Shown: in pieces, positions 7,401 to 55,204 of the stretch
Position numbering within the stretch: the first letter of the stretch is position 1
Layout: every line of letters begins with the position of its first letter
Source of the DNA: Faecalimonas sp.
GTDB lineage: Bacteria; Bacillota; Clostridia; Lachnospirales; Lachnospiraceae
Length of the DNA: 64,000 bases
Direction of reading: 5' to 3'
Assembly: GCA_045649885.1 (NCBI GenBank)
Contig: JAZRQP010000010.1
Location: 4,263-68,262, forward strand
Notes under the pieces: model-generated
The model's input: only the letters and a program-made list of their open reading frames with translations
What the model was told of the DNA's origin: nothing
Databases searched by the model: none
Program-made: the position numbers and the translations under genes

Positions 7401-8020
7401 AGCTCCTCTCCCGAACCAATGTCATACTGCTGAGCACACAGGGTAAGCCATGTGTCTGGATTCGGATAGCTTCTTGAAAATTCATACAAACGTAAAATGA
7501 GCTCTTCTAAATTTTTATCGTCCTTCCCTGTGGAAAAGCATTCAACAAAGGTCAAAAATTCCGGGGCTGCTTCCTCAAACGCCTGCTCTAATACATCGCA
7601 AACTACATCCTGACGTAACAGTTTTAATTCGCCCTCTTCACCTACGCGGAATCCCGGTTCCAAATCAATGGTATGAAAGTGTTCCCGAATCACAGACAAA
7701 CAAAATTTATGGATGGTTGTAATCTGGGCCTGATGAATCAGCGTTGCCTGCTGCTGCAGATGCACATTATCCGGCTGCTCCATTAATGCCTTTTCGATGG
7801 CACTATGAATACGCTCCTTCATCTCTGACGCAGCTGCTTCTGTAAAGGTTACAATTAATAGTTGGTCCACATTAAGGGGCGAAGCATCTTTTGTTAAGCG
7901 GGTGATAATTCGTTCAACCAGTACCGCTGTTTTTCCGGAACCGGCCGCTGCAGACACAAGAATATTGCGGTTTCGCAAGTCAATTACCTGCTGTTGTTCC
8001 TTCGTAAATCTTACTCCCAT
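4442..8020 (-). CDS. addA: ATP-dependent helicase/nuclease subunit A
   Basis: VSAAAGSGKT, TFTEAAASEM, IDEYQD, VGDVKQSIYRFR, MTIHKSKGLEF, C-terminal PD-(D/E)xK VQGIVD...LDYKT. Confidence 0.97.
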   Translation of the reverse strand: MGVRFTKEQQQVIDLRNRNILVSAAAGSGKTAVLVERIITRLTKDASPLNVDQLLIVTFTEAAASEMKERIHSAIEKALMEQPDNVHLQQQATLIHQAQITTIHKFCLSVIREHFHTIDLEPGFRVGEEGELKLLRQDVVCDVLEQAFEEAAPEFLTFVECFSTGKDDKNLEELILRLYEFSRSYPNPDTWLTLCAQQYDIGSGEELEAKAYVQEFLDEVRENLQYMKSLLEHGIKVCREEQGPIAYEKTLQSDLEQIELLCAAKGFTEMKRAITHIEWQKLGSNRGIIVDDAKLLHVKDIRDEVKGYIKKLVENYFYDELENLAEDMSAVHGNMKMLTGLVARFAEQFAEEKRKKDLIDFSDMEQYALQILTREENGNFVPSEVAASYQQKFAEVMIDEYQDSNYVQEAILTSVSGVSNGVYNIFMVGDVKQSIYRFRLSRPELFMEKFNSYSTLDSEKQRIDLHKNFRSRKEVLDSTNFVFRQIMVPRLGGIDYDDKAALYVGADYEEKPDKEAEVLLIEVPESKAKERIEVEAEAIARRIKSLMAGHTVFDKKTGEYRPVRYGDMVILTRSAKGWTESFSKVLGDAGIPTYACSQEGYFETPEIQIALNYLQVLDNPRQDIPLTAVLTSMFAGITSEELAIIRSNNQEKTMYDCICHYAKYGQNKVIKERLEQFLSTLNYYRNRVPYMAIHMLLWQILEETGYRDYVSALPGGEQRAANLEMLVEKAVAFEGTSYKGLFNFVRYMEQLKKYAVDYGEANLMDENADVVSLMTIHKSKGLEFPIVFVAGMGKQFNMQDTKKSLVLHSELGVGVDAVDPIARTKTTTFLKKMIQLREARETTAEELRVLYVAMTRAKEKLILTGTVADLAKEADKCAVLQGYEGTQLPYYHLAKAVKYMDWILPALYRDRCMRSEIPFVVKKMTLEDLAEQEAEEQIFNQITKDVLQQWDTDVVYASEMKQQIAEQFSYVYPFENSQVVKQKLSVSELKKRMYMEQEGEEIFKEEDVIPLLPKFLQEETELTGASRGTAYHKLLELLDFSKDYEDDSLLVTVEKFVSEGFLSEEMAACIDICDIQTFLRSSIGKRVQAASRRGTYHAEQPFVMSFDANRIYTDADEAQCVLVQGIVDVYFEEDGQLVVLDYKTDRVREASELVERYHTQLDYYAEALHKLTGKPVKEKVIYSFALHEEISC

Positions 8021-19221: not shown

Positions 19222-19830
19222 CTAGTTAAGCTCCACAAAATTTTTCAGGATCTTAAGTCCCACATCACTGCTCTTTTCCGGATGGAATTGACATGCAAAC
19301 ACATTGTCTTTCTCCACCGAGGCATGGATATTAACACTGTAGTCTGTGGTTGCTTTTACAATCTGCTCATCCTCTGCTTTGAGATAATAAGAATGTACAA
19401 AATATACATAGGACTGCTCAGAAAGTCCCTGAAACAATCTTCCTTGATTTTGCAAATGCAAAGAATTCCATCCCATATGCGGAATTTTCAAATCATCTTT
19501 GTCCGGAATGCGAAGAATCTCACCCTTCAAGATTCCAAGACCTGCTACGCCTGGAGTCTCATCGCTGCGTTCAAACAACAATTGAAGTCCAAGACAAATC
19601 CCCAAGAATGGCGTTCCCTTCTCTACCACCTCATATATCACCTTGTCCAATCCAAACTTCTTCAGATTAGCCATGGCATCTCCAAAAGCACCTACACCTG
19701 GTAAAATCACCTTATCTGCCTGCAAAATTTCTTGTGCATCCTTTGTAATCACCACATCTGCACCTAGTTTTTGCAGTGCCTTTTCTACACTTTTTATATT
19801 TCCTGCATCATAATCTATAATTGCAATCAT
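19222..19830 (-). CDS. hisH: Imidazole glycerol phosphate synthase glutaminase subunit (5' end reconstituted by the integrated element)
   Basis: [37 protein letters not shown]. Confidence 0.97.
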
Positions 19831-19831
19831 C
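19807..19831. repeat. att core, copy 1 (25-bp direct repeat = first 8 codons of hisH)
   Basis: ATCATAATCTATAATTGCAATCATC is identical to 35013-35037. Confidence 0.93.
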
Positions 19832-19943
19832 GTCTCAACTCCTTATAAATCAAGCATTTTTCAGATGCTTTCTTACATTTTCAACAGTTACTACTGTCAT
19901 TTCGTTGCATTTCATATCATTTTATTGCATTTCGTTACACTTC

Positions 19944-19985
19944 ATAATTAGTAAACATTTAGTATGCTAAATTTCATACTAATTA
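19944..19985. promoter_or_regulatory. Probable integrase arm-type sites near copy 1 of att
   Basis: TTAGTA at 19948 and 19959 (11-bp period) and inverted at 19977; the same ATAATTAGTAAA 12-mer occurs at 34921. Confidence 0.6.
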
Positions 19986-21220
19986 GCTATTAGTTGATTT
20001 GCAATCGTATTTATCTGTACCAACTGCTCATCACTCGGTCTAGCATCAACATAGTTATCCATTGTAGTAGATATGTTTCCATGCCCTAATATGTATTGTA
20101 ATGTTTTCGGAGGTAAATATTGAAAGTTTGTCGCAAAAGTGTGTCTACAGATATGTGGCTCAAATTTACGAATCGGATTATCAACATTTTCTGCATTAAA
20201 ACGCTTGATACAATTTTGTAGATATTCTTCCACATGACTTCTTACTATTGTCTTCCTGCTTCTTGTTGCAAGAAATACAAAGCCTTCATATTTACTACCT
20301 TTTTCATCATAACATACTGGTTCTATATCGCCCTTAATATAACGCTTTTCAAGAATACGCTCAAAACATTCATATACACCATCTGTCATCGGAATACTGC
20401 GTTCACCATTTGTTGTTTTTGTAGGTAAAACAATATGTGTATGATTGATGCATTGTAATTGCTTATCAACTTTTATCATTCGCTCTTCCATATCAATGTT
20501 ATCAAGAGTAAGACCACACAATTCAGATGCTCTTAATCCAGTCCAAAACAACACATATAGCATATCATAGCAATGTAAACTATGTGCATCTTTTGAACAA
20601 AAATCAAGAAATCGGTTCATATCCTCTACTGAAAGTGCTTCCATCTTTTTACTATCGCTTCTATCTGTTGTAATTCGTCTGAATGGATTTTTTGCAACAT
20701 AATCATAATCTAAAGCATACTCAAAAGTTCTTTTTATAAGACTAATCTGTGTTTGAATAGACGAGCCTCTATACTTCTTTTTCATATCAGCAAGCCATTC
20801 TTCACAATGCTCTGGTCTTATCTTTCCGATTTCCATATATCCTAGTTTATACTGTTGTAATGTATTTACCGTTACATTATATCCAACTTTCGTATTGTGA
20901 GCCAACTTTTTCCTATTATATAGTGAATTAAGATATCTATCCACTACTTCTAATAATGTAAGTTTTGCTCCATCAATATCAATATTGTTTTCAAGTTGTG
21001 CGTTTAATTCAGCCTCCTTCTCACGCAAACTCTTTGATGATTTTTTACCTTTTGGTAATTGGTCTGTCATTTCAAGTCTGTAAGAACTTATAACCCTTTC
21101 TTTCCCCAAGCAGTCTTTATAATGATACTCATATCTTTTAGTTTTGGGATTATAATATTCATTAGGTCTTAATGTTTTTCTCGCAGGCTTGTTCTTTTCT
21201 GATGTTGTTTTATTTGCCAT
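19979..21220 (-). CDS. int: Tn916-like tyrosine integrase
   Basis: N-terminal arm-binding domain (RYEYHYKDCLGKERVISS); catalytic R (TGLRASE), HICRH, LGH, and Y in TTMDNY; reading frame intact. Confidence 0.95.
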   Translation of the reverse strand: MANKTTSEKNKPARKTLRPNEYYNPKTKRYEYHYKDCLGKERVISSYRLEMTDQLPKGKKSSKSLREKEAELNAQLENNIDIDGAKLTLLEVVDRYLNSLYNRKKLAHNTKVGYNVTVNTLQQYKLGYMEIGKIRPEHCEEWLADMKKKYRGSSIQTQISLIKRTFEYALDYDYVAKNPFRRITTDRSDSKKMEALSVEDMNRFLDFCSKDAHSLHCYDMLYVLFWTGLRASELCGLTLDNIDMEERMIKVDKQLQCINHTHIVLPTKTTNGERSIPMTDGVYECFERILEKRYIKGDIEPVCYDEKGSKYEGFVFLATRSRKTIVRSHVEEYLQNCIKRFNAENVDNPIRKFEPHICRHTFATNFQYLPPKTLQYILGHGNISTTMDNYVDARPSDEQLVQINTIANQLIAN

Positions 21221-21303
21221 TTCTCAGCCTCCTTAAATAAGAGTGCCTTGAATGCATATTATAGTAAATTATAACGCATTCCAAACACATTGTCCATTTG
21301 TTT

Positions 21304-21510
21304 CTATATCTGTTCCACTTGTTCAATAAACTCCTCAAATTGCTTCCTTTTAATCTTTATAGTACGTCCCAACATAAGATGATATTTGTTTCCAAAGTCT
21401 TCATGCACTATCTCACGCAACCTACGTTGTCCTATTCCAAATAAATCAGATGCTTCTTTTATATTTAATAAAATTTTATTTTCCAATGCTATTGCTTCTA
21501 TAATAAACAC
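21304..21510 (-). CDS. xis: Excisionase (Tn916 Xis / HTH_17-like)
   Basis: KILLNIKEASDLFGIGQRRLREIV...IKIKRKQFEEFI, next to int. Confidence 0.85.
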   Translation of the reverse strand: MFIIEAIALENKILLNIKEASDLFGIGQRRLREIVHEDFGNKYHLMLGRTIKIKRKQFEEFIEQVEQI

Positions 21511-21643
21511 GCTCCATTCCGTTAATAAACATTCTCTAATAAAAACACTGCATAACTAAGGCAGTGTATGCTTTTCTAATTCATATTCAATTTAATCTTC
21601 ATTATAAAAGGGCAAAGCCTAACACCTTGCCCAAATCAATAAT

Positions 21644-22147
21644 CTATGCCGTAGCAAAAACATCTACTGTGGAACTAACAACTTCTAAAATCTCTGCAAC
21701 ACTTTCTTTATGTTCGTCTGTTAAACAATCCCATTTATCTGCTAAAATCTTCATCACTTCATCAACTGTCGGTAAATCTTTTACACAACGCTCAACTGAT
21801 TGCTTATACATTTTCAGTAATCTTTCATATTCTTCAAATACAACATGCGAATATGCTTCACGTACTTTGTTCTGTTCATCTGACTTCTTGCAGATGTAAA
21901 CTAAATCTTCCATCTTAACCAGTTCTTCACATACAAACTTATCATTTTCAGTTGCTATGATTTTAAGCACAAACACACAACAATTGTCATTATCTGTGTC
22001 TGTTGCCACACCGATTTCCTTTAATATTCCCTCAAAGATACCTTCACGTGTGACGTAAATAATCTCTTCATTTTGATGAATGCAAACTTTGTGTTCTTCC
22101 TCTTTCTGTGCCACACAATAATCTACACCTATTTCTCTAAATCTCAT
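21644..22147 (-). CDS. Hypothetical protein
   Basis: 167-aa ORF with AAGGAGG RBS; no recognised motif. Confidence 0.7.
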   Translation of the reverse strand: MRFREIGVDYCVAQKEEEHKVCIHQNEEIIYVTREGIFEGILKEIGVATDTDNDNCCVFVLKIIATENDKFVCEELVKMEDLVYICKKSDEQNKVREAYSHVVFEEYERLLKMYKQSVERCVKDLPTVDEVMKILADKWDCLTDEHKESVAEILEVVSSTVDVFATA

Positions 22148-22267
22148 TATTTAAAATCCTCCTTATTTTCATTTTTTAATTCCTGATTGTCCAATTGTAA
22201 TCGGTCAACCATTTTCTGTAATACTTGAATTTTTCTACTTTCTTTCATAACTATTTCTCCAATACAA

Positions 22268-22298
22268 AAGGACAAGAGAGTGTTAGTCCCTTGTCCTT
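22268..22298. terminator. Intrinsic terminator after the tape-measure fragment
   Basis: AAGGACAAG...CTTGTCCTT stem flanked by A/T runs. Confidence 0.6.
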
Positions 22299-22305
22299 GT
22301 TTTGT

Positions 22306-23577
22306 TTACCACTTATATTTACTCAAATCACCTTTACCATCGGTAATCTCCAAGATGATATTTTCAAAACGTTTACTGTGTTGTAAGTCAGTAATGAAAT
22401 CATCAGCATTCTTGACATTTGGAAATGTCATGTTTTCAAAATGAATTTCTACGTTTTTGTTACTATTGTTATTAGGTACGAAATTCGGCAATTTAGCGTA
22501 ATTGCCAATAGCGTCAAACATGTTAGTTTTTGCAACTACACTCAAAGCATCTTTTAACGCAATAAAGTTTTCCGTATCTTTTGCATTAAGCATAAGTTCT
22601 GGTTTAGATTTAGAACCATGTACCATAGCAAGACCTGTGTAATCAACTTTACCTCCTGTTGCATATGCTTTTACGTCTGATTTTTTAAACCAACCTGTTG
22701 TACCACTAGAGAGTGATTGGTGGCGAACCTTCCAGAAATTGCCCTTCTGTCCAATAATTACATAATAAGGATTTTCATCATAGAATTGATGATATCCTTT
22801 TGTGCCATTTGCCTGACGATATATCAAAGCATTGCCAGCATTAATCCTGCTTCCAACAGTAATTACATTATCATTAGAAGATGAATTGCTTGTTGTTGAT
22901 GGTTTACTTACAGTTGGTGTAACTGTAGTAGATGGAGTCACAGATGTTTGTGTATCTTTAACATTGCTATCTGCAACTGCGTTACTGTCACTTACCATTT
23001 TTGCAACGAGATTTTTAATATCAGACAATGTGCTATTTACTGTAGTAATTCCATCGCCAACAATATTTTTACCAGTTCCATCCCAAATACTTTGCATTTG
23101 TTCGGACAATACATAACCCACATCCCCAGTAACGTCTTTTAACGTATCTGAAATTGTTGAACCATTGCTATTCGTACTATCAATAGCACTTTGTATCAGA
23201 CCAGTAATATCATCCAATCTCTGATTTTGCCACTCAGCAGCCGAATCCATTAAACTTGTTAATAATTTTTCTTCCTCTCTGAGTTGTTGTTCTCTCTCAG
23301 TTTCAGAAAGAGTTTCCTTTGCATCCTCTAGTTCGACTTGATATTTTTGAATGAGCATCTTTGCTTCTTCTGAGTTATCATTCCCATAACTATTCAAGAT
23401 ATTTTGAAGTCGTGAAATCTCTTCTACTTGGTCTTTTACATTCTTCTGATAGTCAAATAAACTATTCGACGAATTTTGCAACTCAAGTCTTTTGTCAATT
23501 AAGGAGTAACGCCAATTACCCTTACACATTGAAGCCAAAGTGTCGCCAAACACATGTGGCTTCTTTTTTATTACCAC
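22306..23577 (-). pseudogene. Orphan C-terminal fragment of a large-prophage tail tape-measure protein (coiled coil + SH3-like + YATGG motif)
   Basis: LFDYQKNVKDQVEEI...SEEAKMLIQ...NQRLDDI...VGYVLS coiled coil; SH3b-like GWFKKSDVK; AYATGGKVDYTGLAMVHGSKSKPELML; no RBS at the GTG start; no other tail genes. Confidence 0.65.
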
Positions 23578-23608
23578 AAAGAAAAGCTAATTTTCTTTCT
23601 GTTGCAAT

Positions 23609-23643
23609 AAAAAAACTACTGTACGTTTACACACGTCAGTAGT
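23609..23643 (-). terminator. Leader intrinsic terminator downstream of the CIRCE promoter
   Basis: Minus strand ACTACTG-ACGT-GTGTAA-ACGT-A-CAGTAGT followed by a U-tract. Confidence 0.75.
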
Positions 23644-23738
23644 TGTTTCAGAACATTATTCAATTGTCAAAGGTTCTGCACTTCCTTGTGTGCAAATCAA
23701 TATAGATGTCTTATACCAAATTCTCTTGATATAAGCAT

Positions 23739-23801
23739 ATGTTAACAGACTTTATATCGTTTGTCAATAATATTTTAGCACTCTTTCGTCGAGAGTGCTA
23801 A
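23739..23801 (-). promoter_or_regulatory. Perfect CIRCE (HrcA operator) plus sigmaA promoter inside the mobile element
   Basis: TTAGCACTC-N9-GAGTGCTAA at 23775-23801; 7 nt; TTGACA (23762-23767); 17 nt; TAACAT (23739-23744). Confidence 0.9.
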
Positions 23802-23809
23802 TAATAAAA

Positions 23810-24716
23810 TTATTCCGTTTGATATTTTATTTCATGTTCAATTGCATATTTCTCTGCATATGACCCAGCTTCACATTTAATAGTAAAATTCTCATCGTCT
23901 GTATTATCAAATGCACTTGATGATATAAATGCATTTTCATCTATACTTGTTACGCTACTAGGAATATATATTTCTGTCAGTCCTGAGAATAAAAATGCAC
24001 CACTACCAATCTTTGTTAGTGTATTAGGTAGATTTACTGTTTTTAAGTTTTTGCAAGAGCGAAATGCACAGTTTCCAATATATTCATATCCTTCTGGTAT
24101 AGTTACTGTTTTTAATTCTTTGTGTAAAGCAAAAACTCCGTTGACATCTGATGTAACCCCTAATATCTTTTTCCCTTCAAAATATTTAGGAAGTATCATC
24201 TCTTCATATGTTCCGCTATATCCAGATATATAACAAGTATTATTGGCTGAATATTGAAAAACTAGATATTTCAAATCAACATTTGTTTCATTATCTTTTA
24301 ATTCTGGCTCAACAGTTGGACTGTTCTGTTGCGTTTTTTGACTAGGTGTAGTAGTCGTGGGCTGTTTTGTTACCTCGTTAGTAGATGGTTTCTCTTGTTT
24401 TGATGTTGCTTGTTGTTCAGATTTTATTTCAGATTCTTTAATTGAATTTTCTTCATTGTCTATAACTTCATTTTCAAGATTGGAAATATCTGTATCACTT
24501 TCATTATCTTTTAACAACTCATCATACTCTTTTATTTGTTCTTCAAGGCTTGCAATACGTGATAACAATTCTTTTTCTTTTTTTATTATGAATATTATTG
24601 CTATGTATAAGAATACCTCCAACTGTTGCCAATGAAAGCAAAAAAGCGACAGATACGATAATACTTTTATGATGGGCTTTAATGAAGTTTTTTATTATGC
24701 CTGTTATATTTTTCAT
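23810..24716 (-). pseudogene. Membrane-anchored BspA-type leucine-rich-repeat protein, frameshifted in an A7 tract at 24578-24584
   Basis: ATG 24716 with GGAG RBS gives MKNITG...TM helix; removing one A restores the frame into KKEKELLSRIAS...; LRR_5 motifs VTIPEGYEYIGNCAF, LPNTLTKIGSGAF, IPSSVTSIDENAF. Confidence 0.8.
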
Positions 24717-24743
24717 GGTACTTGCTCTCCTATGTGTTTTGAA

Positions 24744-25298
24744 TCATATCTTCTTATTAACTATATCTAACACTCGTTTATGATATTCTAGGTCTTCCTC
24801 TTCTGCATCATATACAGCACATCTATCAACATATTTATCAAATATAGAATAATCATAATTACAATCTGTCCATGACACAAGAAAAATCTTTGAGATTTGC
24901 TTGCGTATAAACAAATCCTCAACACAATCTATTTTTACGTCTCTTCTTGCTATCGCATCAATTGGATATAGAATAGCAGCATCAAATTGATGGCTTGTTT
25001 TAGACCAACTATTCTTAGTATTGAAACTATCAGCTTCATAAATATTTTTCCCTATTCTAAACTTCTCTCCCGCCTTTGGCTTCTTTGATACATATTTACC
25101 CAAGAAACTATCACCTGTTATATTCTGCATAGCATTAATTCGGAATAATATCTTTGAGTTTGGCATACATCGGTTTAGCATTGCCATCGCTGCAATATGT
25201 TTTTCGTATTGATGTGTTCCAGTAATGAACATACATTTTTCATCAGATGCAAGAAATTCCTCAATAGACTTTATAAGTTGTTCTTTATTGTTTGCCAT
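24744..25298 (-). CDS. Hypothetical protein, possible degenerate P-loop NTPase fold
   Basis: hhhTGTHQYEKH sits at a Walker-A-like position and AAILYPID at a Walker-B-like position; AAGG RBS. Confidence 0.6.
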   Translation of the reverse strand: MANNKEQLIKSIEEFLASDEKCMFITGTHQYEKHIAAMAMLNRCMPNSKILFRINAMQNITGDSFLGKYVSKKPKAGEKFRIGKNIYEADSFNTKNSWSKTSHQFDAAILYPIDAIARRDVKIDCVEDLFIRKQISKIFLVSWTDCNYDYSIFDKYVDRCAVYDAEEEDLEYHKRVLDIVNKKI

Positions 25299-25325
25299 AA
25301 AACGTATTTCCTTTCTGTAATGTAA

Positions 25326-26288
25326 TTAATCCAAACCATACAAAGCATCAGAATTAAACTGATAATCGCAATAAGTCATAAGATTTCTTTTAGCAATCCA
25401 ACCTTCGATTTCTTCCCCTTCAGAATCAATATAAGTAACTTTATCCCATAACTTTATAGATTCAACCAGAGTTACTTGCTCTCCATATGGAATTTGCATT
25501 GTTACAGATGAATAACTTGATGGTTCTACATATAATTTAGCAGAATCCACTTTAATAAAATAAATATCATCATTACCTTGCATAGAAACTATTGCGCTTT
25601 GTATTTGTGGTAACATCATATCATTTGTAACCTGCGCTCCACTTAATATCGTCCAAATGATTGCAATTGTATAAACTATATATGCTAAAGCTGGATGGTC
25701 TCTTAGAAATGCATTGACCTTTTCTTCCGGCAATACGTTTTCCGATATGTCCCTCAAGTCAAATGTCTCGGACACTTCGTATTCAAACTGTTCTATGTCT
25801 TCTAAAACATCTTCTCTTGTAAAATCCGTTCCATCCAACATGGCATCAAATTCTTCTCTTGGAATTGAAGTTATATGACTGAAAATTCCTTGGTATGATG
25901 AAACAATATCAGAAATGGTCTGTTGGAAATTTTGCATAGATTCTGTCATACCCATAGATGCAGATAAATTCTTTGTAATGTTTTCTACATATCTGGAGTA
26001 ATCATATGTTTTTAATATTGATTGAAAATTAGAACCAAGAACATCAGCAAATGTTTTGGTATATGCTGAATAATCTATAAGTTCCATACAATCCATATAT
26101 CCCTGCATTGTTTTAGAAAGTGATGTCGAGAAAATTTCAACCATATTTTTGGTAGATATGTTCTCGAAAATACCCTGATAGGATTCAAGTATAGATGTAA
26201 TACCTGATAAATTAGATTTAAAATCTTCTCCCACAAGTGTATCCACAATTATTTTGTTGTTAATTACTTCATCCTTTATATTACTCAT
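25326..26288 (-). CDS. SH3-domain membrane protein
   Basis: C-terminal SH3_3 pattern (AKLYVEPSSYSSVTMQIPYGEQVTLVE...WDKV...EGWIAKRNL); TM LAYIVYTIAIIWTIL; N-terminal helical pseudo-repeats (SYQGIF twice). Confidence 0.75.
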   Translation of the reverse strand: MSNIKDEVINNKIIVDTLVGEDFKSNLSGITSILESYQGIFENISTKNMVEIFSTSLSKTMQGYMDCMELIDYSAYTKTFADVLGSNFQSILKTYDYSRYVENITKNLSASMGMTESMQNFQQTISDIVSSYQGIFSHITSIPREEFDAMLDGTDFTREDVLEDIEQFEYEVSETFDLRDISENVLPEEKVNAFLRDHPALAYIVYTIAIIWTILSGAQVTNDMMLPQIQSAIVSMQGNDDIYFIKVDSAKLYVEPSSYSSVTMQIPYGEQVTLVESIKLWDKVTYIDSEGEEIEGWIAKRNLMTYCDYQFNSDALYGLD

Positions 26289-26564
26289 TGTTTTCCTCTC
26301 AATAATTCCGTAATGTTTTTATATGGATAATTATATTGTATCTGTTCAATTTAAGCAAATAATATATGTCACACACACTACTGATTAAAAATATTACCGA
26401 ACCGAACATATTTTTTGTCCCAAAATCACCTGAACCTCTTGAAAAACAAGGCATTATAGCACTTTAACAAAGTTTCTTTTAAAAACTCTACAGAATGCAA
26501 GAAACAAAATAGTTTACAATCATCTTTTATTCTATCACCGAACACATAACCGAACATCTAACAT

Positions 26565-26768
26565 TTGATGTTTGAACTATTACAGAAAGTTCCAGAGCGA
26601 TTCATTCCACAATCTTTAATGGAGTGGTTAGACAAATATCTCACCAAACGCATCCAACTGTTAAATCAACAGAACATAAAAAACACATGGCGAAATATCT
26701 ACCTTGAAAATGTCGTTAATGACATTAATAGCCGGACACAAAAAGAAGCACCTTCAGATGATGATTAA
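26565..26768 (+). CDS. Small hypothetical protein
   Basis: 67-aa ORF convergent on the Fic gene; weak RBS. Confidence 0.45.
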   Translation: MMFELLQKVPERFIPQSLMEWLDKYLTKRIQLLNQQNIKNTWRNIYLENVVNDINSRTQKEAPSDDD

Positions 26769-26789
26769 TTCATCCGTTGGTGCTTGATT

Positions 26790-27419
26790 TTATCTTGCTA
26801 TTCGTTTAATACAGAACTCTTTCATAAATGTAATGATTTTTTCATCCATTGCCGTTTCATAAAATTCGAGTAATAGTCCTTTAAACTCCTCTAATTTTTC
26901 TATTGGAATTTGGAAGATTCCGATATCATTTTCTACCAATACTTTATTTGCTATAAGCTGCGCCACACGTTTATTTCCATCAATAAACATTTGTGTTCTT
27001 GCTACATAACAGAAATATTTTAATGCCTTGAATTCGATGTCTTCTATCTGTTCAATCTTTTCTAGGTTTTCAATAATGATTCCTGTATGTGGTATTTCAG
27101 GCTCCCATGACGTACCACCTATTTGTACTGGGATTGTTCTGATTTCACCTGCATAACTAAATAACAAGTCTCCGACAACTTTATTATATTCTCGCAACAA
27201 CATTAGATTGTTTCCATAATCGAGATTATCTAATAAAAATTGCCATGCTCTTTTCATATTTATTACGAACAAAACTTCTTCCGTTTTTGTCGTTGTAGGT
27301 GCATTTGCAAGAATTGCTTCTGTTTTGGGAAATGTCGTTCCAAGACCTTCCAAATTCGCACTCTTCCAAATACTATCAACTAGAAGACGTTTTGCCATCT
27401 CAATTGCTGAATCACGCAT
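26790..27419 (-). CDS. Fic/Doc family protein with His-to-Gln active-site variant
   Basis: GEIRTIPVQIGG, QMFIDGNKR (canonical HPFxDGNGR/HPFVDGNKR). Confidence 0.85.
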   Translation of the reverse strand: MRDSAIEMAKRLLVDSIWKSANLEGLGTTFPKTEAILANAPTTTKTEEVLFVINMKRAWQFLLDNLDYGNNLMLLREYNKVVGDLLFSYAGEIRTIPVQIGGTSWEPEIPHTGIIIENLEKIEQIEDIEFKALKYFCYVARTQMFIDGNKRVAQLIANKVLVENDIGIFQIPIEKLEEFKGLLLEFYETAMDEKIITFMKEFCIKRIAR

Positions 27420-27449
27420 TATCTTTTATGCTCCCTTCTTCTTATTTTA

Positions 27450-27863
27450 TTATTTTTCTTCCATTGGTACTCTTTGAGGTAACTCTTCTCTCGTGCAAGT
27501 ATGCTCTTTTGTGCTAAGTATCTCGCATAATTTATCTGCATTTTCCCACGTATTAGGTATTACTTCCATAATATCACTTGGTTGACATTTCAACCAAATA
27601 CAGAGTGATTCAATGGATTTTGTATCAATAGAATTTTCTCTAGTCCTTTTTTCTAATAACCTCGTTTCAGGGTTTTTGTAATCGTATTCTTCTAAAAGAC
27701 CTGTTCCCATCTTCAATTTTCTCAAGGTTTCTTGTCCTATTATCTTTTGTTCTCTAATATGCGTTTGATTCTTCCCTTGTTCTTTCATGAGGTCAAATAA
27801 TTTTCCATAATAAATCATTGTATGCCTTTCTGGCTTGTTTCTTTCATCCTTATATATCGCCAA
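27450..27863 (-). CDS. Cro/C1-type HTH regulator with insertion
   Basis: YGKLFDLMKEQGKNQTHIR...IGQETLRKLK...IDTKSIESLCIWLKCQPSDIME (HTH_26-like). Confidence 0.8.
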   Translation of the reverse strand: MAIYKDERNKPERHTMIYYGKLFDLMKEQGKNQTHIREQKIIGQETLRKLKMGTGLLEEYDYKNPETRLLEKRTRENSIDTKSIESLCIWLKCQPSDIMEVIPNTWENADKLCEILSTKEHTCTREELPQRVPMEEK

Positions 27864-27958
27864 CTATATAATGACACAATTATTATACTAAAGTTTTTCC
27901 TTTTTTCAAATAGTTAATTTGTATCGGCAGAAAACTTTCCACCGATACACAAACCAAA

Positions 27959-28561
27959 TTATATTTCAAACAATTCCTTTAAAGTTCTAGGCTGATACTC
28001 TCTATGTCCCAATGCTTCAAAATGTTTCCGGGTCTGCTTGTTTGTCAATCCCTTTATTCCACCAGACAAGATATAATCTATTTTTAAAGATTCATCCTTA
28101 TTTTGTCTCCTGCGAATAAGTCTATCCTGCATCATCTTATAGATTTTATATCCTTTGGCTGCATCTAAATTATAAAACTCCATCGCATGATAAATGTCTG
28201 TGATTTCTCGTTCGATTTCTAGTAATTCCAATTCAAGAACTTTCTTCCGTTTGACAAGTAAATCAAAATCCATTTCCAAAGAAGCCATGATTTCATCCAC
28301 ATCTATATCAAGAGTAGCATCTGACAAATCATTTTTAACCTCAATTGTACTTATGATTTTCCATTCTCCATCCTTTAGTAAATTATCTGCAAGTTTATTA
28401 TATATGGTATTGATTTGATTAAATTTCAACTTGACCGCCTTTTTAAAACTGCCAACAATAATATTTTCCTTTGTTTCATTGTCACAGCCCACATAACGCA
28501 TTCCATCAGTAATTAAATAATGTGTTGCACACCCCATAACAGCTCCGTCCTTCCTACGCAA
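27959..28561 (-). CDS. Phage-type hypothetical protein
   Basis: EIEREITDIYHAMEF.NLDAAKGYKIYKMMQDRLIRRRQNKDE resembles Firmicute prophage ORFs (recalled, not searched). Confidence 0.6.
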   Translation of the reverse strand: MRRKDGAVMGCATHYLITDGMRYVGCDNETKENIIVGSFKKAVKLKFNQINTIYNKLADNLLKDGEWKIISTIEVKNDLSDATLDIDVDEIMASLEMDFDLLVKRKKVLELELLEIEREITDIYHAMEFYNLDAAKGYKIYKMMQDRLIRRRQNKDESLKIDYILSGGIKGLTNKQTRKHFEALGHREYQPRTLKELFEI

Positions 28562-29099
28562 TATATTTTTCTAATGTTGCTTTGATTCGGTTGATTTCCC
28601 TGTAATAAGTTGAAGCAGGAATATCCAATATAAGAAAAATTTCCGTATTATTAAAGCCTTCCATTTTCATTTTAGAAATAACTCGTTGAACCTCGGTTAA
28701 TTTTCCAAGTAATTCATTAATCCGTTCTTTTTCCAAATATTCTGATTCAACGGACTTTCCACCAACGCAATTATAAAGATTTTCCATTTCTGAATGTTCT
28801 ACATCCAAACTTATAACTGTTTCCGTTGGCTTTCGTTTCAATGCGTTTTCCATTTTTCGATTGTTCTCCAACTCAGTTCTCATATATTGCCAAACTGTAA
28901 AATACATATCAGCTTGCTTCGTGTATCTAGTTTTGCGACAATACACCTGAATTCCTTTTAGGAATCCCATTACTGCGACACCGTAAAAGTTATCAATGCT
29001 ATATCCATGCTGATATAAAAAGGCGTAGACGATATTATGATTATTGGCAGCCATTTCTTTTTCTTCCGTTGTAAGTGGTTTTAATTTATATTTTTCCAT
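28554..29099 (-). CDS. Sigma-70 family (ECF-like) sigma factor of the element
   Basis: NHNIVYAFL...FYGVAVMGFLKGIQ (region 2); LGKLTEVQRVISKMKMEGFNNTEI (region 4). Confidence 0.75.
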   Translation of the reverse strand: MEKYKLKPLTTEEKEMAANNHNIVYAFLYQHGYSIDNFYGVAVMGFLKGIQVYCRKTRYTKQADMYFTVWQYMRTELENNRKMENALKRKPTETVISLDVEHSEMENLYNCVGGKSVESEYLEKERINELLGKLTEVQRVISKMKMEGFNNTEIFLILDIPASTYYREINRIKATLEKYIA

Positions 29100-29159
29100 T
29101 TGTTTATGCTCCTTTGATTCCGTTGGGGAATTGCCGGTTAAAGCAACTCCCCAATTAAT

Positions 29160-29558
29160 TTAGAAAAGATTTTCAATAAGTTTATTTAATACTAATTTCT
29201 TCAAGTATCTGCTATCTTCACCATTGATTTCTATATCAAATGGGTCAAAGAATTCTGAATGTATTTCCTCGCCTGATTCATCATCAATCCATAAAATAAT
29301 TGAAACTGAATATCTGACTTTACAATTTTCGATATTGATGTGTAATGCAATATCTCTATAGAGAACAAAGTCCTCTAAATTAATTTCTGGATGCTTCAAC
29401 AATAATGCTTGATTAAACATTTTTTCACATTCTTCATATTTCCTGCGAATGTTGTCGGACATTTTCTCTATTGGCAAATATAAGCCAATATCCGTATCAC
29501 TTAATAAAATGTCATTGATTGCTACTTTTCCGATGTTTTCGATTTTTTTGTTTTTCAT
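29160..29558 (-). CDS. Hypothetical protein
   Basis: 132-aa ORF with AGGTAGG RBS, followed by a GGGGA hairpin terminator (~29117-29146). Confidence 0.65.
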   Translation of the reverse strand: MKNKKIENIGKVAINDILLSDTDIGLYLPIEKMSDNIRRKYEECEKMFNQALLLKHPEINLEDFVLYRDIALHINIENCKVRYSVSIILWIDDESGEEIHSEFFDPFDIEINGEDSRYLKKLVLNKLIENLF

Positions 29559-29664
29559 AGGTTGATTACCTACCTTTCTTTTTGATTTTGTTGTTTTGGC
29601 ATTTCTGCCGAATGGGTGCGATTAAACTGAATAATCCACGGCTAAACCGTCACACCCTGATTGA

Positions 29665-29820
29665 TTACTTACGATTCTTTTTAAGTAGTTTTGAATCATC
29701 AAAATATTTCATTTCCCCACCTTGATAATTTGTTTTAGGTGTAAGAATTTGGCTTCGTCCTATCTTTTGAACAACTCCGTTCTTGGTTACTGTCGCAAAT
29801 TGATTAATTGTTTTCTGCAT
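29665..29820 (-). CDS. Unannotated 51-aa basic small protein
   Basis: Hand translation MQKTINQFATVTKNGVVQKIGRSQILTPKTNYQGGEMKYFDDSKLLKKNRK; AGGAG RBS upstream; co-oriented in the operon. Confidence 0.6.
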   Translation of the reverse strand: MQKTINQFATVTKNGVVQKIGRSQILTPKTNYQGGEMKYFDDSKLLKKNRK

Positions 29821-29868
29821 TATGTACACTCTCCTTTTTTATTGGGGAGATTGCTCTCCCCATTCCTA

Positions 29869-30186
29869 TTATTTAATTCGTAATACTCCGAATGTGGATT
29901 CTGTTCTGACACTTGCAAACTGTTCCATACTAAGCAATTTTTTTACTGCTTCTTTATTTACGTTTTCTCTTGTCTGTACTGAATACGTTGCTTTGTAATC
30001 TGTGCCGATATACTGGCGAATTGGCTTGCCGTTCTTGTCGGTTGCCTCACATTCTTTAGTTTCATTCAGAAATTCGATGATTGCGTTTTCTGCTTCTCTG
30101 ATTTCTGCTTCTGTCTCTTCCTTTAATGCTTTGAGACTTCTTAACTCTGCTACTTTCTTTTCAAGTTCTGATTTTGTCATACACAT
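29869..30186 (-). CDS. Hypothetical coiled-coil protein, first gene of the leftward operon
   Basis: AGGAGG RBS; heptad N-terminus; promoter TTTACA-17-TATGAT upstream. Confidence 0.7.
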   Translation of the reverse strand: MCMTKSELEKKVAELRSLKALKEETEAEIREAENAIIEFLNETKECEATDKNGKPIRQYIGTDYKATYSVQTRENVNKEAVKKLLSMEQFASVRTESTFGVLRIK

Positions 30187-30248
30187 AATGACTACCTCCT
30201 ATTTAATTAATGATTTTGTGTCGGTCTGTTTCGTTTGACCTTGTAGTT

Positions 30249-30366
30249 ATCATACACTAATGTTAGTGTTTTGTAAATTGACGTTTTCACTAATATTTGT
30301 GTATTTAATTTCACTAATATTTGTGTATTTTTACCAATTGATAATTCACCAGTATTAGTGTATAAT
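30249..30366. promoter_or_regulatory. Divergent sigmaA promoters with a shared CACTAAT operator array
   Basis: Minus TTTACA(30272-77)-17-TATGAT(30249-54); plus TTGATA(30338-43)-17-TATAAT(30361-66); 22-bp direct repeat at 30285-30306 and 30309-30330; palindrome ACACTAA-TG-TTAGTGT at 30254-30269. Confidence 0.8.
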
Positions 30367-30414
30367 AAACTCAACAACAAAATAATAAATCAATTTTTAG
30401 GAGGTATCATTACT

Positions 30415-30951
30415 ATGATGAAAATTTACTTAACAAACTTAGGAAAATATAACGAAGGCGAATTACTGGGCGAATGGGTAAAGTTGCCAGCAACAGAAGA
30501 AGAACTAGAAGCAGTTTTTGAACGTATCAAAATATCAGACGAACCAGACGAAAACGGCAACTATTATGAAGAATATTTTATAACAGACTATGAGACAGAC
30601 ATTGACGGCTTGAAAATTGGGGAATATGACAACCTAGAAGAACTTAATGAACTGGCTGAAACATTGGAAGGCATGGACGAAAACGAACTAGAAGTTGTTG
30701 GAGTAATGTTAGAAGACGGATGCGAATTTGATGAAGCAATCAAAAAGACAGAAAACGGCGATTATAGAATCTATTATGATTGTAGCAATATGACGGATGT
30801 AGCATATGAAGTTATAGAAGAATCTGGATTTTTAAATAATGTATCTGATATAGTAGCGCGTTATTTTGATTATGAAGCATACGGCAGAGATTTAGATATC
30901 GAAGGCAAGTTTTACATGACAGATAGCGGAAACTGTATAGAAATTTTCTAA
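30415..30951 (+). CDS. ardA: Antirestriction protein ArdA (DNA mimic); start reassigned to MMKIY
   Basis: KIYLTNLGKYNEGELLGEWVKLP, EEYFITDYE, YFDYEAYGRDL; very acidic; AGGAGG RBS. Confidence 0.93.
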   Translation: MMKIYLTNLGKYNEGELLGEWVKLPATEEELEAVFERIKISDEPDENGNYYEEYFITDYETDIDGLKIGEYDNLEELNELAETLEGMDENELEVVGVMLEDGCEFDEAIKKTENGDYRIYYDCSNMTDVAYEVIEESGFLNNVSDIVARYFDYEAYGRDLDIEGKFYMTDSGNCIEIF

Positions 30952-30970
30952 TATAGAAAAGTAAAAAAAT

Positions 30971-31001
30971 AAGGTTGGGAGCGTTAAACTCTCAACCTTT
31001 T
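30971..31001 (+). terminator. ardA terminator
   Basis: AAGGTTGGGAG-CGTTAAA-CTCTCAACCTT plus T-tract. Confidence 0.8.
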
Positions 31002-31303
31002 ATTATGTCTTTTCTTGGGTGTAATTCTATACGTTTCTAGGGGTTAAAATCACTTTTAGATGGTCTAGCATAGAATTGCTAGACTGTGAGCAAATAAACG
31101 GAAATTTGCTTGATTTTGTGCTTTGTGTGGGTGTGCCGGTGTTGTCCTAAAGTGGCGGGTATTTTACATTTTGACGAATGTTCTGTTTCTCCAAATACCC
31201 TATAGGTGATGTTTCTACACACTCCGTAGTGATTTTGAACTCCGAAGTTAAATATATGGTGATAATTAAAATATTTCTAATCGCTAAAAAATATTTTATG
31301 TTA

Positions 31304-32287
31304 CTAATTACCTGAAAAAGTCACTTTATAATTTCCTTCTTCAAAACCATACTCCGTAAATGTTATTTGATATGACCTTCCTTTCTCTAAACTTGTTTTA
31401 ACAAACTGTCCACCACCACTACATTTCTTTCCATCTTTAACAAACAAATACTCTCCACTAACATTTTTTGGACATCCTGCCACCTGATTGATTATTTTAA
31501 CCGTAATTGTAACAGTCACTTTAAATTTACCGGACATATAATCTTCTTTTTGTATTGCAACATTTTCTATAATCCATTCATTGTATAATGTTTTACTACT
31601 ACTAGAACGAGTTCTATAGTATATTCCTTCGGAACCATCTAAGTGAAATTCGGTCACTACTGAATTTTCGGCAGCGGAACGTTTTGGTGTATTTTCTTGT
31701 GCAATTAAGACAATATTGCACTCAGAACAATGTTTCCCTTCTGTTAATCCTGTTGATGAGTAGGTAGCTGCTACGGCTTTATCAATTACCTCTGTGTGTC
31801 CTTTTGCTGATACATAATCACCTTTATATGAATCTCCACAAGTACAACTATATGTGGTGTAGCCTTGCTCTGTACAAGTAGGATTCGTTTTTGATTTGGA
31901 ATACGAATGTTTATGTTTTTCAGTTTCTTTTTTGTTTTCAGAAGAAGTTGTTTTATTTTCCTTTGATGAAATTGAATTTGTACCACTTGATTTGTCAGTT
32001 TGCTTTTTCTCTTCAGTAGTTTTATTTGATTCCTCTTTAGTTGTAGGCTTTGGGGTAGATGTAGTTCCTGTTGCTGATTCAGAAGCATTATTTTCTACCA
32101 CAACATTCTCTTCTGCTTTTGTATCTTCTCCAATAGTGTCATTGGCATTACTCTCTGCTATTTCTTCGTCAGTCATGGTTGATTCAAGATTCTCATTATT
32201 ATCTACTTTTTCATCCTTCTTACCACATCCGGCACAAGTTCCAAATACTAAAATCATAACTAATAAAATACAAATCGTTCTTTTCAT
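31304..32287 (-). CDS. Lipoprotein with Ser/Thr/Lys-rich linker and PTCTEQGYTTYxC-type repeats
   Basis: MKRTICILLVMILVFGTCAGC lipobox; HSYSKSKTNPTCTEQGYTTYSC and ATYSSTGLTEGKHCSEC repeats. Confidence 0.75.
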   Translation of the reverse strand: MKRTICILLVMILVFGTCAGCGKKDEKVDNNENLESTMTDEEIAESNANDTIGEDTKAEENVVVENNASESATGTTSTPKPTTKEESNKTTEEKKQTDKSSGTNSISSKENKTTSSENKKETEKHKHSYSKSKTNPTCTEQGYTTYSCTCGDSYKGDYVSAKGHTEVIDKAVAATYSSTGLTEGKHCSECNIVLIAQENTPKRSAAENSVVTEFHLDGSEGIYYRTRSSSSKTLYNEWIIENVAIQKEDYMSGKFKVTVTITVKIINQVAGCPKNVSGEYLFVKDGKKCSGGGQFVKTSLEKGRSYQITFTEYGFEEGNYKVTFSGN

Positions 32288-32349
32288 TCCTATAGTCCTC
32301 CTCATAAGTAATTATTTCTTTCCATATTCAGTTGATATCGTTTCTTCTC

Positions 32350-32853
32350 TTATTTTCTCTTAATAGCTTCTAGCAATTTAATTATTTCTGCAAATCCTAA
32401 GAACATTGTTCCAGCAATGATGCATGCAGCCCAATATACAAATGCTATAGCAAATGAAAATTCCGTATCTGTATAAGTATAATATGTACCACGAACAACT
32501 TCCACATTACCAAAGGCTATACCGGCAATAAAACCACCAATATAGATTATCCATGCAATTACAGTTAATGCCGTGGCAATTCCATTTTCAATATCTTTAT
32601 TAATAGGCTTATTGCTATCTGACTTACAACTTTCCTTCACTATCTCATATTCTTCATCCGTAATATCAATAGGTGCTTTCCGATAATACTTTCCTTCCAA
32701 ATTATCATACCAAGAATATTCATCGCTATAGGTGTCTGAATATTCTTTTTCGTATAATCCCTCTCGTATCAACAAATCACTTTTCTCTTTTTCAGATAAT
32801 TCCTTTTGAAGTTTCTCTTTGTGGTCTAAGTATTGCTTTAGTTTGTCATTCAT
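32350..32853 (-). CDS. Hypothetical membrane protein (2 C-terminal TM helices)
   Basis: Start MNDK after AAGGAG; hydrophobic segments IATALTVIAWIIYIGG and FAIAFVYWAACII. Confidence 0.7.
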   Translation of the reverse strand: MNDKLKQYLDHKEKLQKELSEKEKSDLLIREGLYEKEYSDTYSDEYSWYDNLEGKYYRKAPIDITDEEYEIVKESCKSDSNKPINKDIENGIATALTVIAWIIYIGGFIAGIAFGNVEVVRGTYYTYTDTEFSFAIAFVYWAACIIAGTMFLGFAEIIKLLEAIKRK

Positions 32854-33085
32854 TTGTACGCTTCTCCTTCTCATTCCTTAACATTGAGTCCCTCTTTTCA
32901 CATTATAGTTATTTTCTTAACAACAGTCGAGAATAAGACCATATGTGGCATTTTTACACCATCGTATATAGACGGGGATATGTTTACATCTGACAGTTTA
33001 AGTACCTATATACAGCAAGGTACTTTCTCAGAAAAGGCAGAAAATAAGGCATACCAGATAACTTAATATCCGATATGCCTATAAC

Positions 33086-34174
33086 CTAATATGGTTTCAC
33101 TTCCACTTTCAAAAACCTTTCATAAATATATTCAGGAATATTCTCTTTATATTTAGCAACTACCAACAATATATCGGCTTGTTTCATAACCTTATATTCT
33201 GCAAACGCTTCTTCTGCTGTATCCCATTCAGAAAGAGGTATTGTTCTTTCTGCACCTGTAAATGTGATTTCTGCATAATATTTCTTACTCTTTCCATTGT
33301 ATCTAACTCCAAGTGGTAACGTGTTCTCTGGTGTCTGTCCTTCTTCGTAGTGTTTCTTACTATTAGCAAGAAGTATGTTTAATCCTTTTGGTAATAAGCA
33401 ACAGAAATCAGGAGTATACATACCAGAACCATCACCAAATAAATCCTTGTCTACATCCATCTCTTCATCGCCACATTCATAATAGTGTTCTAAATACCAT
33501 TTCACAAATTCTCTTGGATTGTCAATCCAACCTTGCCACATAGTAGATTTATCATAACAAGAACGTACAGTATCATCATCTACTGTGTCACCACATCTTT
33601 TAAGAATTCCGTTATAAACCCTATATGCATGTAAACTTGCTTTGTTCTCATATTCAATATATTCTTGTTCAAGATTTAATTCTTGCCATGCAACCTTGCC
33701 AGTCTTTAAATCCTTATAATCCCTTGCGCTGACATATAGAAGATTCTTATACCAATTATTTGTATCATCTCCGTCCTTATGCCATATTTTATGTCTGCCA
33801 TAATATGACACAAGAAAAGTTTCTGCAACCAATTCTTCTGGTGTAGTCTCTCTCTTATATCGGCTACCATCGACCTTATCAATTTCAAAAACTGTATAAT
33901 GGCATTTACCTTCTTTATGAGAATAAAAAGTGTTTTTGTCTTTACGATTCAGATTATTTACACATCTTCCATAATTAGAAATCCAGTAATTCTCTGTTCC
34001 ATCCACACGGATAAAGACCTCAAAAGCATTTTTCAGTTTATACTTAATTGGATATTCTACTGGTATACATTTATCCTTTGAAATTTCAATTAGTTCTTTT
34101 TGCTCATCTAATATGTATTGTACCTTTCCTGTACACTCATTTTCCTCACTTGTAATAATGTTAATATCATTCAT
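33086..34174 (-). CDS. NUMOD4 - HNH - second HNH-like - AP2 domain nuclease
   Basis: VDGTENYWISNYGRC (NUMOD4); WHKDGDDTNNWYKNL (HNH_3-like); YNGILKRC...DVDKD...YTPDFCCLLP; GVRYNGKSKKYYAEI...WDTAEEAFAEY (AP2). Confidence 0.8.
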   Translation of the reverse strand: MNDINIITSEENECTGKVQYILDEQKELIEISKDKCIPVEYPIKYKLKNAFEVFIRVDGTENYWISNYGRCVNNLNRKDKNTFYSHKEGKCHYTVFEIDKVDGSRYKRETTPEELVAETFLVSYYGRHKIWHKDGDDTNNWYKNLLYVSARDYKDLKTGKVAWQELNLEQEYIEYENKASLHAYRVYNGILKRCGDTVDDDTVRSCYDKSTMWQGWIDNPREFVKWYLEHYYECGDEEMDVDKDLFGDGSGMYTPDFCCLLPKGLNILLANSKKHYEEGQTPENTLPLGVRYNGKSKKYYAEITFTGAERTIPLSEWDTAEEAFAEYKVMKQADILLVVAKYKENIPEYIYERFLKVEVKPY

Positions 34175-34288
34175 TCGTCCTCCTTTTATTTACCTAGAAT
34201 ATAAAATAATCCTACTGTTGACTTTCTTTTACTTCTTATCAACTAAGAACTAAACCTACACTTCTGAGGTAGTAGTATCACCTTATAA

Positions 34289-34690
34289 TTAATTTTCGCT
34301 ATGTGTAGCAGTTGTCTCATTTAATGTTTTTTCTGTCAGACGTTTGCACGCTTCTTTGAGATACTTACCAGCACTTGCTTTAAAAATGTAATGTGCCGGA
34401 TGAACATATATTTCTCTACTATATAGATTAATATGTTTTCTCTCAATCCTTAATGATGGCTCAATCTTAAAATATCCATCCATTATCGCAGTATCACCAT
34501 CTTCAATAATATCCACAAGTACATCCATTAGTGCATTAACAACTTTTTCAATAATCTCTTTCGTATATCTAAGTTTATACCTCTTTGAATATGGATGTCC
34601 TTTTCCATTACCACCGATAACAAATCTTTCATCTTTTAGTTTTTTTCTAACACGGTCTTTAATTTCAATCTTGTTTATTTTCTGATTCAT
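34289..34690 (-). CDS. HU/IHF-like DNA-binding protein
   Basis: IIEKVVNALMDVLVDIIEDGDTAIMDGYFKIEPSLRIERK...FKASAGKYLKEA is the HU fold; start MNQK. Confidence 0.75.
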   Translation of the reverse strand: MNQKINKIEIKDRVRKKLKDERFVIGGNGKGHPYSKRYKLRYTKEIIEKVVNALMDVLVDIIEDGDTAIMDGYFKIEPSLRIERKHINLYSREIYVHPAHYIFKASAGKYLKEACKRLTEKTLNETTATHSEN

Positions 34691-34979
34691 TCTCTCACTT
34701 CCTTTCACCATGAAACTGCTATTTGATTATGTTTATTGTGCTATATTAGGCTCTCACACGCACCAGAATCGTCATATTTCGATTTTCTGATTGTCTGTGT
34801 GAATTTCTTCGTCTAATAAATTCAGGCACTTAAAAAGCCCACTATCAATCATATTCCTATAACTGATAATGGACTTTAGTAAATGTCCAAATATTTAATT
34901 TTATACACATTCAAGGCATTATAATTAGTAAATAATTAGTATAATCAGAACTTTATATTATTTTGTACCGTGTAATGCT

Positions 34980-35036
34980 TTATTTTACAGTAGTCTTTCC
35001 GTTGTAATGGCAATCATAATCTATAATTGCAATCAT
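34980..35036 (-). pseudogene. Orphaned original hisH start (MIAIIDYD then out-of-gene CHYNGKTTVK*)
   Basis: ATG 10 nt after the HK stop codon; first 8 codons identical to hisH. Confidence 0.85.
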
Positions 35037-35037
35037 C
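35013..35037. repeat. att core, copy 2
   Basis: Identical to 19807-19831. Confidence 0.93.
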
Positions 35038-55141: not shown

Positions 55142-55204
55142 ATATTAATACTCATTAAATCAGATGTCAATACAAAATTAGCACTCTCAAAGAAAGAGTG
55201 CTAA
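55142..55204 (-). promoter_or_regulatory. CIRCE plus sigmaA promoter of htpG
   Basis: TTAGCACTC-N9-GAGTGCTAA 55178-55204; 7 nt; TTGACA 55165-70; 17 nt; TAATAT 55142-47. Confidence 0.93.

Follow-up and report, generated by a model that had tools for sequence, protein, structure and literature searches.

An integrative element in the window—the whole 64-kb stretch of DNA analyzed here—carries a perfect CIRCE beside a sigma-A-type promoter, and together they are predicted to form a complete htpG-type class I heat-shock promoter: a putative HrcA operator lying 7 nt 5′ of near-consensus sigma-A hexamers. The explanation we favor, with moderate confidence, is that a captured, HrcA-repressible promoter of the htpG type sits on a recently acquired 307-bp cassette and would drive an orphan noncoding RNA of ~126 nt. 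We infer from sequence that HrcA binds, that the promoter is active, where the transcript starts and stops, and that heat induces it.

HrcA is kept active by GroEL. At normal temperature, GroEL-activated HrcA would occupy the CIRCE and block RNA polymerase at the neighboring −35, presumably in the same way as at htpG; with the operator ending 7 nt from the −35, the repressor would occlude contacts made by sigma region 4 or by the alpha C-terminal domain. Under proteotoxic stress or chaperone overload, HrcA would leave the site, and the released promoter would yield the short RNA, whose synthesis would stop at a strong intrinsic terminator. The cassette would then have the layout of a moron—promoter, payload, terminator—acquired at the junction of a leucine-rich-repeat (LRR)-type module and a truncated giant tape-measure-like gene.

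The CIRCE site and its host element

The element spans 19807–35037 (15.2 kb) between perfect 25-bp direct repeats annotated as att sites; the left copy (19807–19831) overlaps the start codon of hisH and restores the hisH start, and the right copy lies at 35013–35037. On the minus strand it encodes a Tn916-type tyrosine integrase with an N-terminal DNA-binding domain (19979–21220; PF00589 and PF02920) and a Tn916-Xis-type excisionase (21304–21510; phrog_16129), whose homolog on the Logan contig L214 matches PF09035. A sequence-only reading of this DNA had placed the CIRCE within a mobile element, and the repeats, xis, and integrase confirm that the element is integrative and bounded. Its gene order runs from integrase and excisionase through P0002, a conserved 167-aa protein (21644–22147, minus strand) that adjoins a giant gene in all relatives, to a 423-codon frame, an LRR_5 gene, and genes for an HTH-like and an SH3 protein, followed by Fic, another HTH, an ECF-like sigma factor, ArdA, HNH-like, and HU-like genes. 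Beside the ArdA, sigma-like, and HTH genes, no conjugation, relaxase, or virion module was detected in the element. NCBIfam classification of its unassigned genes was uninformative, and 21200–25300 showed no similarity to phage records.

Two genes flank the CIRCE and its promoter. The 423-codon frame contains the 5′-truncated 3′ fragment of a tape-measure-like gene (~398 codons; 22306–23502, minus strand), which matches the tape-measure C terminus of phrog_4211 and has longer homologs. Directly upstream of the CIRCE lies the BspA-type LRR_5 protein gene (23810–24622, minus strand), with a shorter N terminus than its relatives of 300–301 aa. A 1-nt indel at 24584 relative to contig L077 leaves this gene with a TTG start and a product of 270 aa; either the gene is a pseudogene with a frameshift, or the metagenome-assembled genome (MAG) has a homopolymer error here.

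A pattern search of the window returned two exact CIRCEs, at 23775–23801 and 55178–55204; dinucleotide shuffles of the window give an expectation of zero. The copy in the element, TTAGCACTC-N9-GAGTGCTAA, has 18 of 18 arm bases and is a predicted HrcA operator. The predicted promoter beside it (23739–23767, minus strand) reads, from the CIRCE onward, AATATTA (7 nt), TTGACA (23767–23762), 17 nt, and TAACAT (23744–23739), with a TG one base 5′ of the −10 that makes it an extended −10 (TG-n-TAACAT). An operator 7 nt 5′ of TTGACA-17-TAACAT is placed where it could interfere with a sigma-A promoter, and, because hrcA is present in the genome, repression of this promoter by HrcA can fairly be inferred. 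Promoter-like hexamers by themselves are no commoner in this AT-rich region than in shuffles, with 76 counted where 78.6 are expected: the diagnostic feature is the combination of CIRCE and promoter, not the hexamers alone.

The CIRCE begins 8 nt past the LRR stop codon, and the LRR gene has no terminator of its own. No T-run follows the CIRCE hairpin on the 3′ side of either strand, and a terminator scan ranks it as merely a weak candidate (tail AATATTATTG). Lacking a U-tract, the hairpin is ruled out as the terminator of the LRR gene, in agreement with the earlier argument that it is not just a terminator.

The second CIRCE of the window belongs to the resident htpG promoter (55142–55204, minus strand), our comparison site: CIRCE at 55178–55204, TTTTGTA (7 nt), TTGACA (55170–55165), 17 nt, and TAATAT (55147–55142), with htpG itself (53034–55109, minus strand; HSP90 family) on the 3′ side. 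The exact CIRCE and the geometry shared with htpG, both reported from the letters alone, are borne out at 23775–23801 and 23767–23739. So is the statement that the element copy did not arise by recent duplication of the host htpG promoter, since the N9 and both spacers indeed differ; the motifs alone match, which rules out a recent copy. The surroundings of the cassette show no similarity to any htpG 5′ region, and the likeness to other htpG promoters consists of motifs and AT-rich flanks. De novo origin of a 27-bp operator that is both perfect and correctly spaced is very improbable, so the simplest source would be an htpG-type promoter captured from another member of the family; its donor was not found.

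Perfect CIRCEs number five in the whole 2.39-Mb assembly: at hrcA-grpE, groES-groEL, clpB, htpG, and the element. The 46 other genomes of the genus carry one to four each, never five. The genome has an intact hrcA, and its hrcA-grpE and groES-groEL loci, each with a CIRCE of its own, show the classical order of promoter, then CIRCE. At clpB (L003 1501–1527, from the same genome), the −35 falls in the spacer of the CIRCE: the last five bases of the N9 are TTGAC, to which the right arm adds its first G to give TTGACG. An N9 of this clpB type, with the TTGAC end (e.g., TCTCTTGAC), recurs across the genus.

The layout of the element promoter is characteristic of htpG. Among the family-wide matches of the first DNA search, 22 other genera show CIRCE-7 nt-TTGAC(A/T)-17 nt-TAnnAT, upstream of htpG in 21 of them and upstream of clpB in one. 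The same arrangement, with 5–7-nt spacing, is found at htpG in eight further genomes of the genus, and among 2.9 million viral contigs the exact geometry occurred once, at a host htpG promoter. Because this layout marks htpG in the family, the genus, and the sole viral match, we assign the element promoter to the htpG type. In ~30 genomes of the family (L007–L034 and L059–L066), the htpG CIRCE lies 5–7 nt 5′ of the −35, whereas at groES and hrcA it lies 3′ of the −10. An operator 5′ of the −35 is unusual for a repressor; no description of it was found in the literature searched, and we know of no experimental test of a CIRCE so placed.

Exact CIRCEs have been reported at groE, dnaK, and hsp90 of Clostridium cellulovorans and Clostridium acetobutylicum (PMC8336468), and htpG is therefore an accepted member of the clostridial HrcA regulon. 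With the clostridial htpG (hsp90) promoter the element site shares the same perfect 27-bp operator, the 5–7 nt before TTGACA, and the 17-nt spacer. Unlike that promoter, it is followed by neither a chaperone gene nor any other ORF, its transcript being predicted to end after ~126 nt, and it lies on a mobile element and is not conserved in related elements.

The 307-bp cassette and the predicted RNA

Two homology breakpoints delimit the cassette (23503–23809, minus strand), which comprises the CIRCE, promoter, RNA, terminator, and a spacer of ~100 nt. On the LRR side, homology to a 91%-identical LRR locus (L076) stops precisely at 23810, with the final base of the LRR stop codon. On the int side, nucleotide homology to contigs L048 and L214 ends exactly at 23502, and homologs of the 423-codon frame align solely from residue 26 onward. 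The giant gene is intact in G418 (L048/L212), a genome of the same genus, where it encodes 2110 aa; on L214 it runs to at least 654 aa and is followed by P0002, a Tn916-Xis, and a 413-aa Tn916-type integrase at 87–90% nucleotide identity to the window. At the position of the cassette, L048 and L214 have an uninterrupted giant gene and no CIRCE; not even a three-mismatch CIRCE occurs in L048, L212, L213, or L214.

Relatives of the LRR side at 73–91% identity (L076, L068–L075, and L078–L079) carry an ordinary hairpin terminator past the stop codon, and no CIRCE. Beyond that terminator stands an oppositely oriented gene in L076 and sequence that varies among the other contigs; two of these LRR relatives have what looks like the guaA 3′ end there, an indication that the element of the LRR-type relatives stops at that point. 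The only relative with a CIRCE is L077, a contig of 1.77 kb at 97.7% identity that ends inside the −10. Its two SNPs in the promoter region (23772 and 23753) both fall outside the arms and hexamers, a sparing that is not significant (chance ~0.27). The sequence-only reading had held the element to be wired to the heat-shock regulon; that claim is not supported, since homologous elements other than the nearly identical L077 lack the CIRCE, an outcome which that reading had itself named as refuting it. Because relatives of both flanks lack the segment and L077 alone has the site, we read the cassette as gained recently, in a single lineage, at the seam where the modules of a chimeric and partly decayed element meet, and not as a conserved regulatory feature.

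Chimerism is evident on both sides of the seam. The int-proximal 3.7 kb of the element matches L214 and G418-type elements, and nothing in the window element corresponds to the 11.6 kb upstream of the match on the G418 contig, the 5′ part of the giant gene included. The right part of the window element, at its LRR end, resembles elements that seem to adjoin the 3′ end of guaA in two contigs. One MAG assembly is the sole source of the left junction (23502/23503), and an exact look-up of P0002 and P0124 returned no independent copy of it on record.

The first 25 codons of the 423-codon frame (23503–23577) are not tape-measure sequence. They resemble L067 1501–1539 (88% nucleotide identity over 40 nt), a stretch within the gene that encodes an unrelated protein of 260 aa in a different genome of the genus, and are probably another small fragment trapped at the junction. 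Phage contigs L080–L084 show a split tape-measure gene: an N-terminal part of at least 1070 aa where visible, a C-terminal part of 303–314 aa, and an inserted gene of 427–556 aa with faint or weak DUF723, DUF4379, or CapR matches, possibly homing-endonuclease-like. After the split gene come a DUF6558 protein, possibly the distal tail protein, and then a large protein of ~1225 aa.

From a start near 23732, the promoter is predicted to give a noncoding transcript of ~126 nt (23607–23732, minus strand) with two 5′ hairpins and an intrinsic terminator, the latter formed by a 12-bp stem (23644–23614) and U7 (23613–23607). The predicted fold scores z = −2.9 against shuffles. No minus-strand ORF of 20 aa or more lies in the leader, and the next ORF is the truncated tape-measure fragment, which has no chaperone domain; as a class I heat-shock gene, then, the unit lacks the expected product. 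The leader fell into no known RNA family: Rfam gave no match at the gathering threshold, and relaxing the cutoff to E up to 10 brought in only noise. Searches for relatives of the cassette or its leader found none in 400 family genomes, 47 genus genomes, viral contigs, and metagenome contigs; the family genomes were searched twice, once with the leader alone, and the viral and metagenome contigs by two exact-pattern scans each. In its own genome the RNA has no second copy and no trans target with complementarity above chance, and covariation support was nil.

The region has two marks of a small-RNA gene, its own predicted promoter and a Rho-independent terminator around a structured noncoding sequence; the searches for conservation, covariation, or a target gave nothing to add to them. 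That the element carries a bona fide HrcA-repressed small RNA gene, such that proteotoxic stress or chaperone overload would switch on an element-encoded riboregulator, we regard as doubtful.

Alternative explanations and the relation to xis-int

The promoter had been described as aimed at the leader, the tape-measure fragment, and xis-int. Its strand is as described, but a supply of transcripts to xis-int is not supported: three intrinsic terminators lie between promoter and xis, and int has a promoter-like site of its own (21296–21268, TGGACA-17-TATAAT). The first terminator is that of the RNA (23644–23607); the terminator scan places the others after the tape-measure fragment (22298–22268, minus strand) and 3′ of P0002, 5′ of xis (21632–21610, minus strand). 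The related proposal that the element senses stress through this promoter and passes the signal into xis-int fares no better, the predicted first product being a terminated, ORF-less RNA and the next a pseudogene fragment. Because of the terminators, the separate int site, and L214, which has the same int module and no cassette, coupling to excision finds no support in the sequence: the cassette is not visibly connected to xis-int, and a functional link between them is not supported.

An excision switch would require the HrcA-gated promoter to act as the element's stress sensor, with read-through into xis and int, perhaps by antitermination at a boxA-like motif, so that heat or chaperone overload leads to excision. 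The promoter does point toward xis-int, which share its strand, the integrase belongs to the Tn916 type, and a promoter, leader, and terminator 5′ of excision genes recall the tet(M) attenuator of Tn916, where leader attenuation couples an upstream signal to xis/int transcription. The parallel covers Tn916-type Int and Xis and a promoter with a terminated leader upstream on the same strand; it fails in that two further terminators and ~2.1 kb, including a pseudogene fragment, intervene here, in that there is no leader peptide, and in that L214 has no leader before the same int module. With its P0002-xis-int at 87–90% nucleotide identity, L214 also lacks the CIRCE and retains an uninterrupted giant gene, and the cassette occupies the scar of a truncation rather than a conserved regulatory region. 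We consider such a switch very unlikely. The present evidence mainly shows a host stress promoter captured at a recombination junction, and heat-triggered excision is unsupported.

The reading we favor, a captured promoter driving a noncoding RNA, draws on a perfect CIRCE that is one of five in the genome, the other four standing at hrcA, groES, clpB, and htpG; on a layout that is that of htpG promoters across the family, the genus, and the sole viral contig match; on the place of htpG among known exact-CIRCE genes in clostridia (PMC8336468), together with the intact hrcA; on a terminator hairpin and U7 ~126 nt downstream with no ORF between; and on breakpoints at 23810 and 23502 around a cassette found in L077 and absent from other relatives. 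It has to accommodate hexamers that alone are as frequent in shuffles, an operator position unusual for a repressor, a sparing of SNPs in L077 within chance, a left junction from one MAG assembly, and an RNA that, with no homolog, covariation, or evident target, may be meaningless transcription. An alternative is an inert relic: a foreign htpG-like (or clpB-like) promoter piece brought in by illegitimate recombination or imprecise excision, unselected and functionless even if HrcA may bind it. The location exactly at a chimeric junction beside a pseudogene fragment, the indel in the neighboring LRR gene, the absence of the site from all moderately diverged relatives, and the orphan RNA all fit such a history, which we hold to be possible, if on the unlikely side. 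The functional parts are nevertheless all intact: the arms keep 18 of 18 bases, the −35 is perfect, the spacing is 17 nt, the −10 is extended, and the terminator matches. The surroundings are also unlike any htpG 5′ region, and together this favors a complete working unit or a very recent capture.

If the operator instead mattered simply as a protein-binding site, it could act as a decoy that titrates HrcA, the more so if excision is followed by replication of the element, or as a roadblock against read-through from the LRR operon into the int-proximal genes. Its position 8 nt past the stop codon of an LRR gene without a terminator would serve a roadblock, and tandem CIRCE arrays near non-chaperone genes in some viral contigs (for example L147) resemble titration or multi-site control more than they do a lone operator; but one extra site among five would titrate little, nothing suggests that the element replicates, and the exact htpG-type spacing to a consensus promoter would be left unexplained, so we think either role highly improbable. 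Least credible is an assembly artefact, a MAG contig joining reads from different elements, so that the context of the cassette would not be real. The genome is a MAG of 153 contigs with 3.8% contamination, and the left junction has no independent copy. The right junction, from the LRR stop through CIRCE and −35 to the start of the −10, is however reproduced in L077, an independent Logan contig from another sample; the perfect 25-bp repeats frame the element and restore hisH; and the order of the int-proximal module is the same as in L214.

HrcA operators on mobile and viral DNA

HrcA regulons are small and consist almost entirely of chaperone genes. Were the favored reading true, the regulon would be extended in kind, by an RNA output, and in location, onto horizontally mobile DNA. 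If the element did carry the bona fide HrcA-repressed small RNA gene that we regard as doubtful, no earlier small RNA under HrcA control would be known, nor an earlier class I heat-shock output from an integrative element. Taken with the tandem CIRCE arrays of some phage contigs, such a gene would suggest that mobile elements repeatedly tap or manipulate the HrcA–GroEL circuit. The promoter would also be a simple test case for HrcA repression from an operator upstream of the −35.

Prophage-encoded small RNAs under host regulators are known, as with PinT under PhoP in Salmonella. Like PinT and the morons of phages and islands, the cassette would be a self-contained promoter-payload-terminator unit between element genes, with the operator of a core host regulator and a noncoding payload; unlike them, its regulator would be HrcA, and its RNA is predicted from sequence. 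The literature searched described no HrcA-gated integrative element and no HrcA-controlled moron or small RNA. The nearest case is Lactobacillus plantarum, where class I or III stress-operator motifs were predicted upstream of prophage P2a genes and an hrcA mutant showed changed expression of an integrase gene (PMC3842655). Those motifs are weak matches (p ~1e-6), with no perfect CIRCE and matched promoter, and no mechanism was shown there either.

Viral contigs with a perfect CIRCE are not rare: more than 113 stand among the matches listed. At the 80 loci read, 20 of 118 ORFs downstream of a CIRCE in either direction matched five chaperone references (GroES 12, HtpG 5, HrcA 1, GroEL 1, and ClpB 1), and a recurrent group among the remaining ORFs looks by eye like small heat-shock proteins. 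These contigs suggest wider support for mobile elements touching the HrcA circuit, of which the present element is a weak example.

Other viral CIRCEs stand apart from chaperone genes. Contig L147 (IMGVR_UViG_3300038675_000167; 41.9 kb) has three perfect copies and one imperfect copy in tandem at 5373–5548, with a 49-nt period and a small GTTAGA..TCTAAC repeat between copies; the array lies between divergent genes without a Pfam or PHROG match and may serve the phage as a sponge for HrcA or as a switch with several operators. In L108 and L101 the CIRCEs adjoin small ORFs that look related by eye, having a motif in common within the first ~50 residues, and in a few large phage contigs CIRCEs precede genes with no assigned function.

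An apparent link between CIRCE and serine integrases in ~12 viral contigs was rejected: in L105, the contig inspected, it reflects a prophage inserted just upstream of a host groES promoter. There (7880–8070), the prophage has a large serine integrase, and the host CIRCE lies ~80 nt from the end of the "viral" contig. L097, L103, L106, L111, L115, L117, L130, L134, L136, L167, and L171 have CIRCE-adjacent sequence in common with L105, by sequence match only, and the region beside groESL may be a recurrent attachment site.
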